10,524 nt of DNA from a virus. Taxonomy: Duplodnaviria; Heunggongvirae; Uroviricota; Caudoviricetes. The notes beneath the pieces were generated by a model, which was not told the DNA's origin, did not search any database, and saw only the letters and a list, made by a program, of their open reading frames with translations. The position numbers were made by a program, and so were the translations under genes. Shown one piece after another: positions 1-10,524 of this stretch (position 1 is its first letter; every line of letters starts with the position of its first letter). The DNA lies in the IMG/VR virus record IMGVR_UViG_2541047695_000006; one strand, written 5' to 3'.

Positions 1-1242
1 ATGGCACGAAAAACCACCCCACTAACTATTACGGAGATCAAAAACGCACGACCAGGGGAAAAGGAATATACCCTGCAGGATGGCGGAGGATTATTTCTTC
101 TGGTGAAGCCCTCCGGATCAAAAATCTGGCGTTTTACGTACTACCGTCCGGCAGATAAAAAACGGACTATTATCAGCCTTGGATCGCTAAATGATGTTTC
201 CCTGTCTGATGCCAGAGAGCGACGGAATGAATACAGGTCACTCATAGCAAAGGGAACTGACCCACAGGACTACGAACGCCGGAAACGTGAAGCAGAGAGC
301 AGGAAAAAGGGCAACACGTTCGAAAAAGTTGCCTTGGACTGGTACGAGATGAAAAAAGGCCAGAATCTGGCTTACAACACGATTAAGGATATCTGGCGAT
401 CCCTGGAAAAATACGTATTCCCGTACATCGGAAACACGCCAATAGATACCCTCACCGCTCGCCGCTTTGTTGAGATACTCACACCCATTAAAGCACGCGG
501 CAACCTGGAAACTCTGAAACGCGTTTTACAACGCATCAATGAAGTGATGGATTTTGCTGCCAACAGTGGGCTGATTGACATCAACACCGCCGCGAACGTC
601 CGCAAGGCATTCCCTTCCCCCACTAAAAAGCATATGCCAACCATCCGACCGGAACAGCTACCGCAGCTAATGCACGATTTATCGGTCGCCAGCATAGAAC
701 GGCAAACCAGATTGCTAATCGAGTGGCAACTGCTGACCGTAGCACGCCCAGCCGAAGCAGCCGCCGCACGCTGGGAAGAAATAGATCTCGATGCCGAAAC
801 ATGGACGATTCCAGCCGGACGCATGAAGATGCGCCGTGACCATGTGATCCCTCTTTGCGGTCAGGCGATGGCTGTACTGGAAACAATGAAGCCAATCAGC
901 GCACACAGGGAACATGTTTTTCCCAGCCTTAAAAATCCAATGCTGCCAATGAGCAGCCAGACCGCTAACGCTGCATTGCGCCGGATGGGATACGCTGGTG
1001 TGCTGGTGTCTCACGGATTACGCGCCATATTCAGTACAGCAGCGAACGAGGAAGGATTCGAGCCGGACGTAATCGAGGCCGCACTCGCACACGTGGACAC
1101 GAACGAGGTAAGGCGAGCATATAACCGAAGTAACTACCTGGAAAAACGTGTAGTACTTATGCGCTGGTGGGGTGAATTTGTGGAAGCCGCAGCAACCGGA
1201 GTGACCATAGCCAGTGGTAAAAGGGGTATCCGTGCGGTGTAA
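1..1242 (+). CDS. int: Tyrosine recombinase / site-specific integrase, P4-like family
   Basis: 413-aa ORF. N-terminal arm-binding-type domain (LTITEIKNARPGEKEYTLQDGGGLFLLVKPSGSKIWRFTY), C-terminal catalytic region with HGLRAIFST and a Tyr in RRAYNRSNY. The ATG sits exactly at the window start, so the upstream RBS is not visible. Confidence 0.9.
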   Translation: MARKTTPLTITEIKNARPGEKEYTLQDGGGLFLLVKPSGSKIWRFTYYRPADKKRTIISLGSLNDVSLSDARERRNEYRSLIAKGTDPQDYERRKREAESRKKGNTFEKVALDWYEMKKGQNLAYNTIKDIWRSLEKYVFPYIGNTPIDTLTARRFVEILTPIKARGNLETLKRVLQRINEVMDFAANSGLIDINTAANVRKAFPSPTKKHMPTIRPEQLPQLMHDLSVASIERQTRLLIEWQLLTVARPAEAAAARWEEIDLDAETWTIPAGRMKMRRDHVIPLCGQAMAVLETMKPISAHREHVFPSLKNPMLPMSSQTANAALRRMGYAGVLVSHGLRAIFSTAANEEGFEPDVIEAALAHVDTNEVRRAYNRSNYLEKRVVLMRWWGEFVEAAATGVTIASGKRGIRAV

Positions 1243-1412
1243 CTGTACAAAAAACCAGTGCAACCAGTGCAAACCATGCTAAACCATCGTATAATCGCCT
1301 ATCTCCTCAGCAGACAAGGAAAAACCCGACTCATGAGAAATCGAGATTTATTGAAATGGTCTGGCACGAAAAATCATCCAATGTCTGCGGTGAAGGGCTG
1401 CAACTGGCGTTA

Positions 1413-1598
1413 ATGGCAAATCGTGAATTCTGGTCAACATACGATCCGGAAGACAAATCAACAGCCCCCACAAAACACGAGGTAGTCAGTTTTTTACGCT
1501 CGCGTGGCGCATCGAAAAATCTGGCTGAAAGCATCGACAAGGTGCTGAGGCCCACCAGCCTTAAATGTGGTGGGCGACCTAAGAAGTGGAAACGGTAA
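1413..1598 (+). CDS. Hypothetical small protein (alternative start at 1356)
   Basis: ORF in the track (1356..1598). It follows a perfect TATAAT at 1290-1295 and is followed by an intrinsic terminator at 1606-1633. RBS is weak and there is no recognisable domain. Confidence 0.35.
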   Translation: MANREFWSTYDPEDKSTAPTKHEVVSFLRSRGASKNLAESIDKVLRPTSLKCGGRPKKWKR

Positions 1599-1605
1599 TC
1601 ACAAT

Positions 1606-1633
1606 AGCGGCCCCTTGCGGTCGCTATTTTTTT
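1606..1633 (+). terminator. Rho-independent terminator (7-bp stem with one G-U pair, 6-nt loop, T7 tail)
   Basis: AGCGGCC-ccttgc-GGTCGCT followed by ATTTTTTT. Confidence 0.5.
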
Positions 1634-1666
1634 GCAAAAAGAAAGCGTAATCAATGAGATAAAAAA

Positions 1667-1698
1667 CAGTGAGTACCGTTTTAAAACGGTGAGTACTG
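1667..1698 (+). promoter_or_regulatory. Repeat/palindrome element upstream of alpA (candidate operator)
   Basis: Two copies of GTGAGTAC(C/T)G flanking the perfect palindrome ACCGTTTTAAAACGGT, about 70 bp upstream of the alpA start. Confidence 0.35.
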
Positions 1699-1767
1699 TT
1701 TTTCCCGCCCTGCCCTGTTTTACCGTATTTACCACCGGAATACGCCGGATTAACGAGGTAAAACACG

Positions 1768-1974
1768 ATGGAAGTAATCAGAAAAATTCTTACCCGTCAG
1801 GAAGTAAAAAATATTCTGCGCATCAAGGCAGACAGTTCGCTACAGGACATGATCAACGCCGGAAAATTCCCGAAAGGCTTCAAAATCGGTCTGCGCCGTG
1901 TTGGCTGGTATGAAGATGAGGTGCAGGCCTGGTTGAAAGAACGCGAGGAAGAAGCGCGCGGAACGGCTGCGTAA
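1768..1974 (+). CDS. alpA: AlpA-family phage transcriptional regulator (HTH, excisionase-like)
   Basis: 68-aa ORF with the AlpA-type motif LTRQEVKNILRIKADSSLQDMINAGKFPKGFKIGLRRVGWYEDEVQAWL. GAGGT RBS about 9 nt upstream. Confidence 0.85.
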   Translation: MEVIRKILTRQEVKNILRIKADSSLQDMINAGKFPKGFKIGLRRVGWYEDEVQAWLKEREEEARGTAA

Positions 1975-2232
1975 TGGTGTGAGGTGTAACGCAATGAACA
2001 TAACAAAAAGCGCCCCGTTGCCGGAGCGCCCTTGTGAACAATTAACCTGCTGCGAAAAAAATGGATCAGTGCAGGGGAATTATATCAACTGTGTGAAGAA
2101 GCGCCACTATTGCCGGATAACAGGCAAAGAAAAGGCCACCAGTCACGGTAGCCCTGCGACACAAATTTCGCGTTATCCCCAACGCATGAGCATCGCCAAC
2201 AATGCCACATTTGCGGCTGGTGGGCAATGCAA

Positions 2233-2421
2233 TCAGTCTGGTTCAGTTCGTTGCCATACCTGCAATGAGCGCTTTTCCCTGTACTCTTTAAGGAATTGCT
2301 CAAGGGCAAAAGCACATGGCGCGAATCTTTCTGATTCATGCTCTATCTTTCTGCGCCGTCTTTTCCGTGCCGGTGATAATGTTTTGGTCAATTCTTTATC
2401 GGTCATTGTGTTGTCCTGCAT
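2233..2421 (-). CDS. Hypothetical small basic protein, possibly co-transcribed with the RHH gene
   Basis: 62-aa ORF in the track, immediately downstream (minus strand) of the RHH ORF. No domain recognised and RBS is weak. Confidence 0.2.
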   Translation of the reverse strand: MQDNTMTDKELTKTLSPARKRRRRKIEHESERFAPCAFALEQFLKEYREKRSLQVWQRTEPD

Positions 2422-2463
2422 AGCAATGCGCCGTAATACCTTACACCACGGCGCTGATGGTGA

Positions 2464-2643
2464 TTACTCTGGTTCTTTGGCCTTGCGCCGCTGGCGATAT
2501 TCAACTTCTCGTTTTAATGCCGCAGTAACAAATTGCCCCGTACTTTCGCCAGGCATTTTTACCGCCTCAACATTGTTCATAACTTCATGCGGAACCCTTG
2601 CCGCAACGGTTTGTGATTTTGCGTTTACCGCTTTTGTCGCCAT
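2464..2643 (-). CDS. Small ribbon-helix-helix-like DNA-binding protein (59 aa), candidate repressor; not in the ORF track because it is under 60 aa
   Basis: Translated by hand: MATKAVNAKSQTVAARVPHEVMNNVEAVKMPGESTGQFVTAALKREVEYRQRRKAKEPE. GAGGGG RBS 8 nt upstream. Divergent from the rightward operon and directly facing three palindromic operators. Confidence 0.5.
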   Translation of the reverse strand: MATKAVNAKSQTVAARVPHEVMNNVEAVKMPGESTGQFVTAALKREVEYRQRRKAKEPE

Positions 2644-2693
2644 GTGGTGTACCCCTCATAAAAAACAAATGCAGTATGCAGGAAAAAAAATAA

Positions 2694-2745
2694 GTGTTCA
2701 ACACTTGACGTGTTTAACACCTGGGTTTAAATTGGTGTTCAACAC
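2694..2745. promoter_or_regulatory. Divergent promoter/operator region with three 11-bp palindromes GTGTT(C/T)AACAC
   Basis: Palindromes at 2694-2704, 2710-2720 and 2735-2745. A sigma70-like -35 TTGACG (2705-2710) and -10 TTAAAT (2728-2733) with 17-bp spacer point rightward and are interleaved with the palindromes. Confidence 0.5.
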
Positions 2746-2842
2746 CTTGTTGGCGCAAGGTGCAGAAACGACGAAACCCGGCAGTGCGCTAACACTAACC
2801 GGGCTTCTAACCACCAACGATAGCGAAAGTATCGAGGTAGCT

Positions 2843-3049
2843 ATGAGAAATCATACCACACACCCGCAAGGGCGGGACTCGCACAACCTGAATAAATACA
2901 TCTGGCGTTTTATCGCCCTGAGCACGGCACAACCGCGCGTGATTACCATTGAGGCCACCAGCGAACAGGAAGCGCGTCAGCAATCTCCTGATGGCTGCGT
3001 GATGGTATTCGCTGCCCGTATTCGCCAGGGGGAAACCTATGCACAATAA
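2843..3049 (+). CDS. Small protein (68 aa), first gene of the rightward operon; tentatively Icd-like
   Basis: In-frame C-terminal part of the 1979..3049 ORF, preceded by GAGGT RBS. Sequence MRNHTTHPQGRDSHNLNKYIWRFIALSTAQPRVITIEATSEQEARQQ... The family call is from memory and tentative. Confidence 0.55.
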   Translation: MRNHTTHPQGRDSHNLNKYIWRFIALSTAQPRVITIEATSEQEARQQSPDGCVMVFAARIRQGETYAQ

Positions 3050-7683: not shown

Positions 7684-8067
7684 ATGCAGAATCATTACAA
7701 TGACCTTAAGCCAATTGCCGAAATGATGTATCCGGATCCAGCAGTAGAGGAATTAAAGGCTATTGCTGACAAAATGCGTTTAAGTGAACGCCTTGTTGAT
7801 ATGAATCAGGTGATGGAACTTACTACCCTTAGCCGTCGCACATTGCTAAACCTTGAGGCTCGTGGAGAGTTCCCCGAACGCGTACAGGTTACGGAAGGGC
7901 GTAAGGCCTGGTATTTAAGTGAAGTGATCGACTGGATAAACAATATTCCTCGAGCTTCTGAATATTGCCGCGTACCTGTCCCCAAAAAGCCAGATGCGGC
8001 GCTATGCCTCAAGATTGAGCGTGTACGTCGCAATGCACGGGATGGTCGCTATAAGTTGATTGGTTGA
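7684..8067 (+). CDS. AlpA/MerR-like HTH DNA-binding protein (127 aa) immediately upstream of cos
   Basis: HTH segment LTTLSRRTLLNLEARGEFPERVQVTEGRKAWYLSEVIDWINN. AGGGGGA RBS. About 40 N-terminal residues have no recognisable signature. Confidence 0.65.
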   Translation: MQNHYNDLKPIAEMMYPDPAVEELKAIADKMRLSERLVDMNQVMELTTLSRRTLLNLEARGEFPERVQVTEGRKAWYLSEVIDWINNIPRASEYCRVPVPKKPDAALCLKIERVRRNARDGRYKLIG

Positions 8068-8120: not shown

Positions 8121-8241
8121 ACGGGGCGGCGACCTTGCGGATTTTCGCTATTTATGAGCCTTTTCGGGTTGGTGGTGGTGGTTTTGTTTTTCGCTCTATC
8201 TCTATGAATAAAAAGGGAAAGATAACACCAACACACCAACC
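8121..8241 (+). other. Lambda-like cohesive end site: cosN (12-nt cohesive-end sequence at 8124-8135) plus cosB-like repeats
   Basis: GGGCGGCGACCT at 8124-8135 and the following about 35 nt closely match the lambda left-end sequence as recalled. Downstream are GGTTGGTGGTGGTGG (8167-8181), an A/T-rich tract, and a tandem ACACCAAC x2 (8225-8240) in inverted orientation, ending about 30 bp before the Nu1-like start. Confidence 0.7.
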
Positions 8242-8268
8242 TGAAACCTTAACTAAGTGGGGATATTG

Positions 8269-8811
8269 ATGAAATCGCACCTGATGAACAAAAAAACTAT
8301 GGCGCAAAGCTGCCGCGTAAGTGCGACAGCGTTCGACAAGTGGGGAGTAACTCCCGTTGAGCGTAAAGGCCGTGAGGCGTTTTATGATGTTGCTAGCGTG
8401 ATAGACAATAGGGTTAACAATGCAATTAACCAGCTTACAAACGACAAAGGCGAGATTGATGATGATGAACTTTTACGCGTAAGAATCAGATTAATGACGG
8501 CCCAGGCGGAAGCGCAGGAACTTAAAAACGAGCGCGAACGCGGCGAGGTGATTGATACAAAGTTTTGCATCTACGCGATTTCAAAACTAGCGAGTCAGAT
8601 TTCATCAATCATGGACAGCCTCCCGCTCACAATGCAAAGGCGCTTTCCCGATATAAGGCCGTATATGCTGGATGAACTAAAAAGGGAAATAGCCAAAGCA
8701 TGTAACGCATGTGCAAGACTTGACGAAAACCTGCCACAGATACTGGCTGATTACCTGATGGAAACTACCGGAAACGCGCCTGAGAAGTTGCTACAGAACA
8801 AAGGCGAGTAA
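8269..8811 (+). CDS. Terminase small subunit, lambda Nu1-like
   Basis: About 180 aa, collinear with lambda Nu1: N-terminal winged-HTH region (NKK...FYDVASVI) and TAQAEAQELKNERERGEVIDTKFCIYAISKLASQISSIMDSLPLTMQRRFPD. The start at 8269 has a GGGGA RBS; the track ORF begins at an upstream GTG (8257). Confidence 0.85.
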   Translation: MKSHLMNKKTMAQSCRVSATAFDKWGVTPVERKGREAFYDVASVIDNRVNNAINQLTNDKGEIDDDELLRVRIRLMTAQAEAQELKNERERGEVIDTKFCIYAISKLASQISSIMDSLPLTMQRRFPDIRPYMLDELKREIAKACNACARLDENLPQILADYLMETTGNAPEKLLQNKGE

Positions 8812-10090: not shown

Positions 10091-10280
10091 TCTGTGATCA
10101 TCCACCAGCTTGATGACAGATAACAGGGAGTCATAACGATTAAAATTGTATATTTTTGCAGCAAACATTTTTAGCTACACGCTAAGCTATACGATTTTGA
10201 GTTTAAATTTTTTGTATTCAATTAAATCAAATGGTTATATGCACGTTTTGAATACTCTCGTGGACCAAAAATCCCAAGAA

Positions 10281-10307
10281 AACCAACCTATTGCGGTTGG
10301 TTTTTTT
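10281..10307 (+). terminator. Rho-independent terminator, strongest in plus orientation and possibly bidirectional
   Basis: AACCAACC-tattgc-GGTTGGTT followed by T7. Lies about 60 nt beyond the stop of the minus-strand edge ORF. Confidence 0.5.
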
Positions 10308-10368
10308 ATATCTGCATTTAATTCGATAAACAGACAGCGACACATCACGGCCTGTTTATTTTCTGTTA

Positions 10369-10524
10369 TCAGAACGTCCAGACTACACCCGCCTGAGTTG
10401 TGCTGCTTTCTTCACGGGAGAAACGGCTGTCGATACCAAGCGTTAGCCCCGTCAATGTTTGCTCAAAGCCAGCGCCTGCATCAGTGGTCACGTTGTTGCG
10501 GCTGTTAATTGCCGAACTCCACAT
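10369..10524 (-). CDS. Short minus-strand ORF at the window edge (51 codons from an ATG at 10522-10524; may be the C-terminus of a longer gene starting outside the window)
   Basis: Translated by hand: MWSSAINSRNNVTTDAGAGFEQTLTGLTLGIDSRFSREESSTTQAGVVWTF, stop at 10369-10371. Under 60 aa so absent from the track. Function unknown. Confidence 0.3.
   Translation of the reverse strand: MWSSAINSRNNVTTDAGAGFEQTLTGLTLGIDSRFSREESSTTQAGVVWTF

Follow-up and report, generated by a model that had tools for sequence, protein, structure and literature searches.

The stretch of DNA analysed here, hereafter the window, is the 10,524-nt Caudoviricetes record IMGVR_UViG_2541047695_000006 of IMG/VR, and it is a phage-inducible chromosomal island (PICI) of the EcCICFT073 type from Escherichia coli. 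Our subject is the interval between its integrase gene int and alpA, the gene of the master activator, and above all the small open reading frame (ORF) in this interval, ORF80, which we also call X (Table 1). Gram-negative PICIs are recognized by an int gene, an alpA gene, a pri/rep-type replicon, genes for packaging redirection, a length of about 10-15 kb and an insertion site not used by prophages. Pfam searches with the window proteins found int, alpA, a replicon of the pri/rep type and packaging-redirection genes. The window carries int, ORF80, alpA, DUF4222, a RepA-type helicase and a single-stranded DNA-binding protein (SSB), and in addition genes of the capsid-E-like, decoration-D-like and Nu1-like kinds and a second ORF of the AlpA family.

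An initial annotation of the window, made from the letters alone, had described a compact transcription unit between int and alpA. This description holds; the unit is self-contained, and its promoter, ORF and terminator are all conserved in related islands. We gathered 53 loci from IMG/VR, 37 from metagenomes and several from genomes (L numbers below), and aligned the 39 distinct int-to-alpA intervals among them. These split into two deep clades, A and B, with saturated synonymous sites (proportion of synonymous differences, pS, about 0.78). Against this background, the identity between the clades is 100% for the TATAAT hexamer, 79% for the 47 nt from the int stop codon to the -10, 82% for a 42-bp repeat block upstream of alpA, 67% for the ORF, and 46% for the terminator plus spacer. 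More distant relatives encode a longer X and are referred to as long forms.

Table 1. Features of the int-alpA interval and its flanking genes (positions in the window)
Feature	Position	Strand	Basis
int, P4-type tyrosine integrase	1-1242	+	Pfam Arm-DNA-bind_3, Phage_int_M, Phage_integrase
LexA/SOS-box-like candidate operator AACTGTACAAAAAACCAGTG, core CTGT-N8-CCAG at 1243-1258	1241-1260		Weight matrix, positional conservation
Phased direct repeats AACCAGTGC, AACCAGTGC, AAACCATGCT, AAACCATCG, period 9-10 bp	1253-1289	+	79% between-clade identity
-10 hexamer TATAAT	1290-1295	+	Invariant in 39 distinct sequences
Hypervariable cassette: 5' untranslated region and ORF codons 1-12	1298-1394	+	20-54% allele identity, against 93-98% in the flanks
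ORF80 (X), 80 aa, basic, short form of the int-X-alpA family	1356-1598	+	Selection, family, model
Intrinsic terminator	1603-1635	+	10-bp stem, T7 run, conserved structure
Two adjacent 20-bp units AAAACRG-TGAGTA-CYGTTTT, 7-6-7 palindromes, candidate operator	1663-1702		Conservation, uniqueness
alpA, master activator of Gram-negative PICIs	1768-1974	+	Pfam Phage_AlpA; role from PMC6092414

A LexA-box-like site on the int stop codon

The E. coli LexA consensus is TACTG(TA)5CAGTA (PMC9578287), and we took as the mark of a LexA operator a 16-bp core CTGT-N8-ACAG within this 20-bp consensus. The candidate operator of the window starts within the int stop codon, of which it takes in the last two bases, and spans about -61 to -42 relative to the presumed start of transcription. 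It has CTG-N10-CAG intact, agrees with the consensus at 13 of 20 positions and has an A/T-rich spacer; CTGT-N8-MCAG is found only here in the window. Scored with a weight matrix of 21 E. coli boxes, it is the top site in the window, with 17.7 bits as compared to 12.9-27.0 bits for the training sites, and at least this score was reached in 8 of 1500 whole-window shuffles (p about 0.005 per window). The second-best site, AATTGTATATTTTTGCAGCA (10144-10163, 12.8 bits), is imperfect in both half-sites. It stands at the start of an ORF (10146-10508); L037, L067 and L074 have sites like it.

In all alleles, the CTGTA and the CAG of the box are invariant and the spacer varies. The alleles score 16.0-21.4 bits, and some of them, for example L003 and L012 (21.4 bits), have a perfect CTGT-N8-ACAG. 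The survey was extended to the long forms, with 15 further loci and a Kluyvera genome, in which Int, X and AlpA (404, 240-300 and 65 aa) differ from those of the window. In most of these, namely L109-L112, L114 and L117-L124, a LexA-type site of 13.6-20.8 bits starts one base before the end of int; in shuffled sequence, sites of at least 13 bits turn up about once per 1e5 positions. In total, the box sits on the int stop in both E. coli clades, in 11 of the 13 long-form loci (L110-L124) that have an adjacent int and DNA upstream of X, and in L109. Judging from this distribution, the box is ancestral to the int-X-alpA module.

The position of the box relative to the promoter differs among relatives. 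The right half-site doubles as the -35 hexamer (TAGACA) in the long forms, with TAGACT 17 bp downstream, and the -35 is contained within the box in L109-L119; L057 has TTAACT and TGgTATAAT on the two sides of the box, which takes up the whole spacer. These are the layouts of classical LexA-repressed promoters. For the short-form E. coli alleles, the geometry between box and -10 is kept in both clades.

Phased repeats and promoter

The tandem repeat noted in the initial annotation, ACCAGTGCA, consists of AACCAGTGC at 1253-1261 and again at 1262-1270, and ACCA recurs every 9-10 bp as had been described (1254, 1263, 1273 and 1283). Four ACCA in a row at this spacing are found once in the window and in none of 2000 block shuffles. 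The exact tandem is private to the window allele, the nearest relative having ACCAGTACA as its first copy. Across alleles, conservation extends to a phased pattern of AAAC(C) and is most marked for the core CTGTA...CAG. The repeats take up the 29 bp that separate the SOS-like box from the -10, and their first copy is the right half-site of the box, so that the tandem noted earlier is the duplicated right half of the LexA-like box.

The perfect TATAAT at 1290-1295 was found again and is the same in 39 of 39 distinct sequences, including those of the clade with saturated synonymous sites, although the hexamer by itself is not enriched in the window (2 occurrences versus 4.9 expected). The lack of an obvious -35 was likewise borne out by a promoter scan, which found no promoter-like pair in 1000-2200. 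The best hexamer at 17-bp spacing, GTGCAA, matches the -35 at 3 of 6 positions, and the -10 is preceded by TCG rather than TGn. For the activator-dependent promoter that had been suggested we found no evidence; the conserved upstream site resembles the operator of a repressor, LexA.

ORF80 is a protein-coding gene

Conservation of the ORF across related islands had been proposed as a check, and the frame is intact in 38 of the 39 distinct sequences. Within clade A, codons 13-77 show 5-9 synonymous and 0 nonsynonymous differences. Between the clades, the proportion of nonsynonymous differences (pN) is about 0.17, compared to a pS of about 0.78, and dN/dS is 0.05-0.12 within clade B and 0-0.12 overall. 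The remaining two frames contain 3-5 stops. Upstream, the ORF80 frame is open to 1221 without a start codon, which is uninformative, since another frame is equally open. The unit is very probably a real gene.

The initial annotation had left open whether the ORF has 80 or 61 codons. The 80-aa version is the one to retain, as codons 13-19, which precede Met20, change synonymously only (GGG/GGC/GGT, CTG/CTT/TTA, CAA/CAG and GCG/GCC). We also considered translational coupling to a 61-aa product via an ORF in the +1 frame (1333-1413, 26 codons, ATG at 1333), which ends with TAATG on Met20 (TGATG in clade B). This was rejected, because upstream of Met20 the main frame changes synonymously only, the +1 frame changes nonsynonymously, and 4 of the 6 Leu codons before ATG create such a stop anyway. 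We judge the TAATG overlap incidental, as coding constraint is seen in the main frame only. As to the nature of the product, for which a small regulator or a small RNA (sRNA) had been offered, a regulator is favored, also over cargo, and an sRNA is disfavored by the strong purifying selection on the frame, the lack of significant leader structure and the empty Rfam search.

A variable leader and a conserved terminator

The 5' untranslated region and the first codons form a cassette that exists in at least six versions, each with its own start codon and ribosome-binding site. The versions are shuffled between lineages; L003, for example, has a clade-B-like cassette within clade-A flanks. The cassette may be the scar of the loss of an N-terminal domain, or it may be a specificity determinant. 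Folding of the 5' leader RNA gave nothing significant (z = +1.4), and Rfam at E <= 1 returned zero matches over 1243-1767. A terminator-like hairpin on the minus strand (1345-1325) lies inside the allele-specific cassette, contains many G-U pairs and was taken as chance. The place of the cassette is held in long forms by a conserved structured leader of about 57 nt that precedes X (L109:2190-2290, with an equivalent in L110-L119). Its outer stem GGCTATGTC/GGCATAGCC surrounds an inner stem CCCGCA/TGCGGG, and compensatory changes are seen at two pairs (L113: CCAGTA/TACTGG).

At the other end of the unit, the terminator is as clean as had been stated. It has a 10-bp stem (1603-1612/1619-1628) that begins 5 nt past the ORF80 stop codon, a 6-nt loop and a T7 run, with a folding energy of -14.3 kcal/mol (z = -3.25). 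In clade B, another stem sequence makes the same structure (-15.0 kcal/mol, z = -4.2). There is no terminator between int and the ORF80 unit, and read-through from int would therefore also enter ORF80. The terminator would stop both the ORF80 transcript and this read-through before the alpA control region.

The X family

ORF80 has a pI of 9.7, and K or R make up 8 of its last 20 residues, with the C-terminal tail GGRPKKWKR. The AlphaFold (AF2) model shows three helices at a pLDDT of 76. Residues 1-10 fall below 50, and the N-terminal tail that is supplied by the cassette is predicted to be disordered. In a model of a long form (pLDDT 81), a disordered linker connects an alpha/beta domain at the N-terminus to a C-terminal domain with the same three helices. 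X is predicted to fold into a small bundle of three helices, similar to a helix-turn-helix, that ends in a basic GRP tail, and its matches to known folds are weak.

A profile built from homologues of ORF80 retrieved 610 representative proteins at E < 1e-3, nearly all of them 150-300 aa long and matching through the C-terminal 60 residues. This domain of about 60 aa is marked by the motif FWSTYDPxDxxTAPxKxxVxxxLxxxGxSxNxAxAIDxxLRP, which residues 13-80 of ORF80 carry. The short form looks like a long form minus its N-terminal domain, that is, a free-standing C-terminal domain. With regard to the GRP core with basic flanks that an AT-hook-like tail would have, GGRPKKWKR is kept in close relatives and degenerates to GPRK, GRRP or GLKNxR across the wider family. 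Neither ORF80 nor its long-form relatives have a match in Pfam, PHROG, NCBIfam or PADLOC, and a profile search of PDB sequences together with Pfam scans of 37 family members returned noise only. In their source databases, all relatives go by the name "hypothetical protein".

The address of the gene is constant. In more than 50 loci, distant long forms included, and in every locus with sufficient flanking DNA, int, X and alpA follow each other in this order on the same strand; in L063, X starts 5 nt past int. EcCIMP1_002, a small gene in the int-alpA gap of EcCIMP1 (PMC11773190), and yfjH of K-12 were both checked as possible X homologues, and neither is homologous. In L056, X is truncated. One protein, P0011, is an X-AlpA fusion produced by a deletion; it is labelled as coming from a nematode assembly, probably a contamination. 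Two loci carry additional genes or DNA upstream of X, a type III restriction-modification system in L057 (1146-5755, with no int found on the contig) and about 1 kb between int and X in L115 (1186-2207), which suggests that this interval takes up cargo in some relatives.

The control region of alpA

Between the terminator and alpA, and thus outside the predicted transcript, lie the two 20-bp palindromes of Table 1, which are strongly conserved (82% between-clade identity). AAAACRG-N6-CYGTTTT is confined to this site in the window, with 5 strand matches as compared to 0.16 expected. If TATTTA at 1725-1730 is the -10 of alpA, their centres fall near -64 and -44. Palindromic repeats are present between X and alpA in all long-form lineages as well, each lineage having sequences of its own, for example GGTGGCACC or TACCCAC. 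The first alpA-proximal 20-bp palindrome is missing from L050 and L054 (a 21-bp deletion), and L052 has an extra copy of CACCGGAATA in the alpA leader. AlpA is known to activate its own promoter (PMC6092414), and the route by which helper phages turn on alpA has been described as unknown (PMC6092414, PMC11773190).

A model for the int-X-alpA module and its alternatives

The initial annotation had raised the idea of an induction sensor. This idea gains support from the conserved LexA/SOS-box-like operator that the repeats turn out to contain. We infer binding of LexA, induction by the SOS response, DNA binding by X and alpA as its target, and suggest the following model. The basic composition of X and its three predicted helices are in line with DNA binding. 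In undamaged cells, LexA would hold X low. DNA damage, which is also the inducing signal for helper prophages, would lead to cleavage of LexA and a rise of X. X might then bind adjacent control DNA, either the two alpA palindromes (near -64 and -44) or its own phased repeats, and this binding could modulate alpA and through it excision and replication. The terminator would shield alpA from transcription of int and X. That LexA controls X appears probable to us. The whole chain, in which a LexA-gated DNA-binding protein links DNA damage to the alpA control region, is more tentative, and we put it somewhat below an even chance.

Several points speak against this model or parts of it. The 21 boxes behind the weight matrix are not a curated set, only the consensus being taken from a paper (PMC9578287). 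The window box ends 29 bp 5' of TATAAT and is centred near -51, which is atypical for simple promoter occlusion. At this distance, repression would need another route, for example a block of upstream RNA polymerase contacts, and it may be weak. The int-alpA gaps of EcCICFT073 and EcCIMP1 do not have an X homologue, and yet both are functional, helper-induced PICIs, so that X is not needed there and would be an added input or modulator rather than a core part. Moreover, alpA of these two islands was reported not to respond to SOS alone (PMC6092414, PMC11773190). Finally, since AlpA activates its own promoter (PMC6092414), the palindromes could be AlpA rather than X sites, and a phage protein is a further candidate for binding them.

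X could alternatively be an SOS-induced antirepressor in the manner of 186 Tum, Gifsy GfoA/GftA, N15 AntC or P4 epsilon, inactivating a repressor of the helper or of the island by protein binding, with the hypervariable N-terminal tail setting the specificity for the partner. Satellites that derepress their helper are known, as with P4 epsilon. A hypervariable 5' cassette between conserved flanks is what one would expect of an arms-race interface, and the layout, in which a LexA box precedes the gene of a small protein and a separate terminator follows it, is that described for LexA-controlled antirepressors (PMC3121763). Nevertheless, we consider this reading unlikely. No PHROG or Pfam family was matched, antirepressor families included, and the variable tail comprises only 8-13 residues that are predicted to be disordered. 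Cis-acting DNA binding is favored by the strict int-X-alpA synteny, the adjacent lineage-specific palindromes and the two DNA-binding-like domains of the long forms. X might also be an accessory to site-specific recombination, which would assist Int and AlpA at the att sites in an architectural or directionality role and whose SOS control would tie excision to damage: the gene is always found between int and the Xis-like alpA, it starts as little as 5 nt after int (L063), and its basic GRP tail resembles a minor-groove binding motif. Against such a role stand the normal excision of relatives without X and the weak fold matches. This makes a recombination cofactor quite unlikely in our view.

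A maintenance repressor, a Gram-negative counterpart of Stl of the Staphylococcus aureus pathogenicity islands (SaPIs), would be made constitutively from the TATAAT promoter, keep alpA silent through the two palindromes and lose its activity to a protein of the helper phage. The perfect -10, the insulation of the unit from alpA by a terminator and the palindromic operators upstream of alpA would suit it, and the existence of a repressor in Gram-negative PICIs has been called unclear (PMC6092414). However, with a conserved LexA operator X is expected to rise during SOS, the opposite of what a repressor of induction should do. In addition, the positions near -64 and -44 are typical of activators, and PICIs without X stay silent. 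We therefore regard an Stl-like role as improbable. The same low probability is given to an unrelated accessory gene (moron), or to a functional RNA or DNA site with an incidental ORF. The unit has the promoter-plus-terminator layout of a moron, it matches no known protein family, and the int-X interval takes up cargo (L057, L115). This reading is contradicted by the strong purifying selection on the frame and by the synteny kept across distant lineages, as well as by the absence of Rfam matches, of leader structure and of a PADLOC match.

Relation to known systems and implications

LexA-gated small genes on temperate elements are already known (PMC3121763). The closest in layout are the LexA-controlled phage antirepressors (186 Tum, GfoA/GftA/GfhA of the Gifsy phages, FsoA of Fels-1 and AntC of N15), each, like X, a small mobile-element gene behind an SOS box. 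Their genes are set apart by terminator-like hairpins and wire induction into the host SOS response (PMC3121763). X has no detectable sequence or family relation to them, looks DNA-binding-like and lies between int and alpA, not outside an immunity region. In addition, no cognate repressor is known in Gram-negative PICIs.

With regard to the kind of element and the gene order, the window matches the int-alpA modules of EcCICFT073, EcCIEDL933 and EcCIMP1. There, too, alpA is located downstream of int; it activates its own expression, and induction depends on it (PMC6092414, PMC11773190, bioRxiv 2022.09.08.507074). Unlike the window, these prototypes have no X in the int-alpA gap, and their alpA is reported to be SOS-independent; the window adds a gene that is putatively gated by an SOS box, and a terminator. 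In strain CFT073, six ACAAC repeats at 10-bp phase directly follow the int of EcCICFT073 (L104:9185-9245), and further ACAAC/ACAAT copies lie just upstream of alpA. This island also has a LexA-like site, TACTGTTTTTTTATACACTG (L104:9289-9308, 17.0 bits), with CAC instead of CAG in the second half. In EcCIMP1 of E. coli MP1, an island without X, the int stop is followed at a distance of 4 nt by CTGG-N8-ACAG, which is a weak match to a LexA site (L102:2762-2781, 10.5 bits).

A LexA operator beside a tyrosine-recombinase gene is also found at the integron intI promoter, where it couples recombination to damage (PMC9578287). In the window, in contrast, the box is at the 3' end of int, and what it would control is the gene downstream rather than int.

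The binding sites of two Xis-like regulators, P2 Cox and 186 Apl, are arrays of direct repeats with a phase of one helical turn. The window is similar in having direct repeats phased by 9-10 bp in a promoter region near an Xis/AlpA-like gene, and the ACAAC array after the int of EcCICFT073 is analogous. It differs in that the long-form TAGAC repeats, the equivalent of the AACCA repeats of the window, coincide with the -35 and -10 hexamers.

Pseudomonas aeruginosa AlpA acts by antitermination, and there, too, a promoter and then an intrinsic terminator lie upstream of AlpA-dependent genes. That AlpA is a larger, eight-helix, Q-like protein with a binding element between -35 and -10, and it acts in conjunction with a sigma-dependent pause and the terminator tB (PMC9371919). 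PICI AlpA, in contrast, has 68 aa and is a plain HTH_17/Xis-like protein. An antitermination model for the window was set aside on account of this difference in protein architecture.

In the literature that we searched, there is no description of the X family, of its int-alpA address, of the box on the int stop or of an SOS link for Gram-negative PICIs. The window thus presents a conserved candidate LexA operator and an uncharacterized, widespread gene directly upstream of alpA, the gene whose switch-on is described as unknown (PMC6092414). If LexA control and an effect on alpA both hold, the induction of these satellites and of many P4-integrase/AlpA islands would include a helper-independent sensing of DNA damage, which would bear on the spread of virulence and defence islands under antibiotic stress. 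That X is an unrecognized SOS input to Gram-negative satellites, in the form of a LexA-repressed, family-specific DNA-binding protein or of an antirepressor that switches on alpA or the helper prophage upon DNA damage, is possible, but we hold it to be rather doubtful. In that case, the P4-integrase/AlpA island class, with hundreds of protein clusters, would sense SOS directly via a previously undescribed module of LexA box on the int stop, X and alpA, whose specificity would be set by the hypervariable cassette of leader and N-terminal codons. Whatever its function, X represents a protein domain family that is new and keeps a constant place in the genome, as well as a regulator that can be tested.

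Distribution of the unit and other features of the window

Near-identical copies of the island are found in complete genomes at tRNA-Pro next to yejM, where RefSeq labels ORF80 a hypothetical protein of 80, 76 or 61 aa. By blastn, the homologous unit is present in 374 of 5426 complete E. coli genomes (about 7%), in all of them on the chromosome. Carriers include Nissle 1917, ATCC 25922 and many O111 and Shiga toxin-producing (STEC) strains. A phage collection searched for the unit gave no match, and scans of genome contigs gave next to nothing.

Downstream of alpA, a mechanically listed long ORF (1979-3049) is probably not a gene, RefSeq showing small genes on both strands. In this region of Icd-like, YlcI/YnfO and further small divergent genes, Rfam reports the SymR antitoxin RNA as a weak match on the minus strand (2770-2842, 33 bits versus a gathering score of 61, E = 0.003). 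The second AlpA-family ORF (7684-8067, 127 aa, Phage_AlpA domain at residues 36-85) lies inside the packaging module, as reported for some other PICIs. Just 5' of the Nu1-like gene (8257-8811), at 8161-8247, there is a long imperfect inverted repeat, GGTTGGTGGTGGTGGTT ... AACACCAACACACCAACC. Rfam gave a spurious microRNA match to it on both strands, and the repeat could be a packaging (cos-type) or regulatory site.

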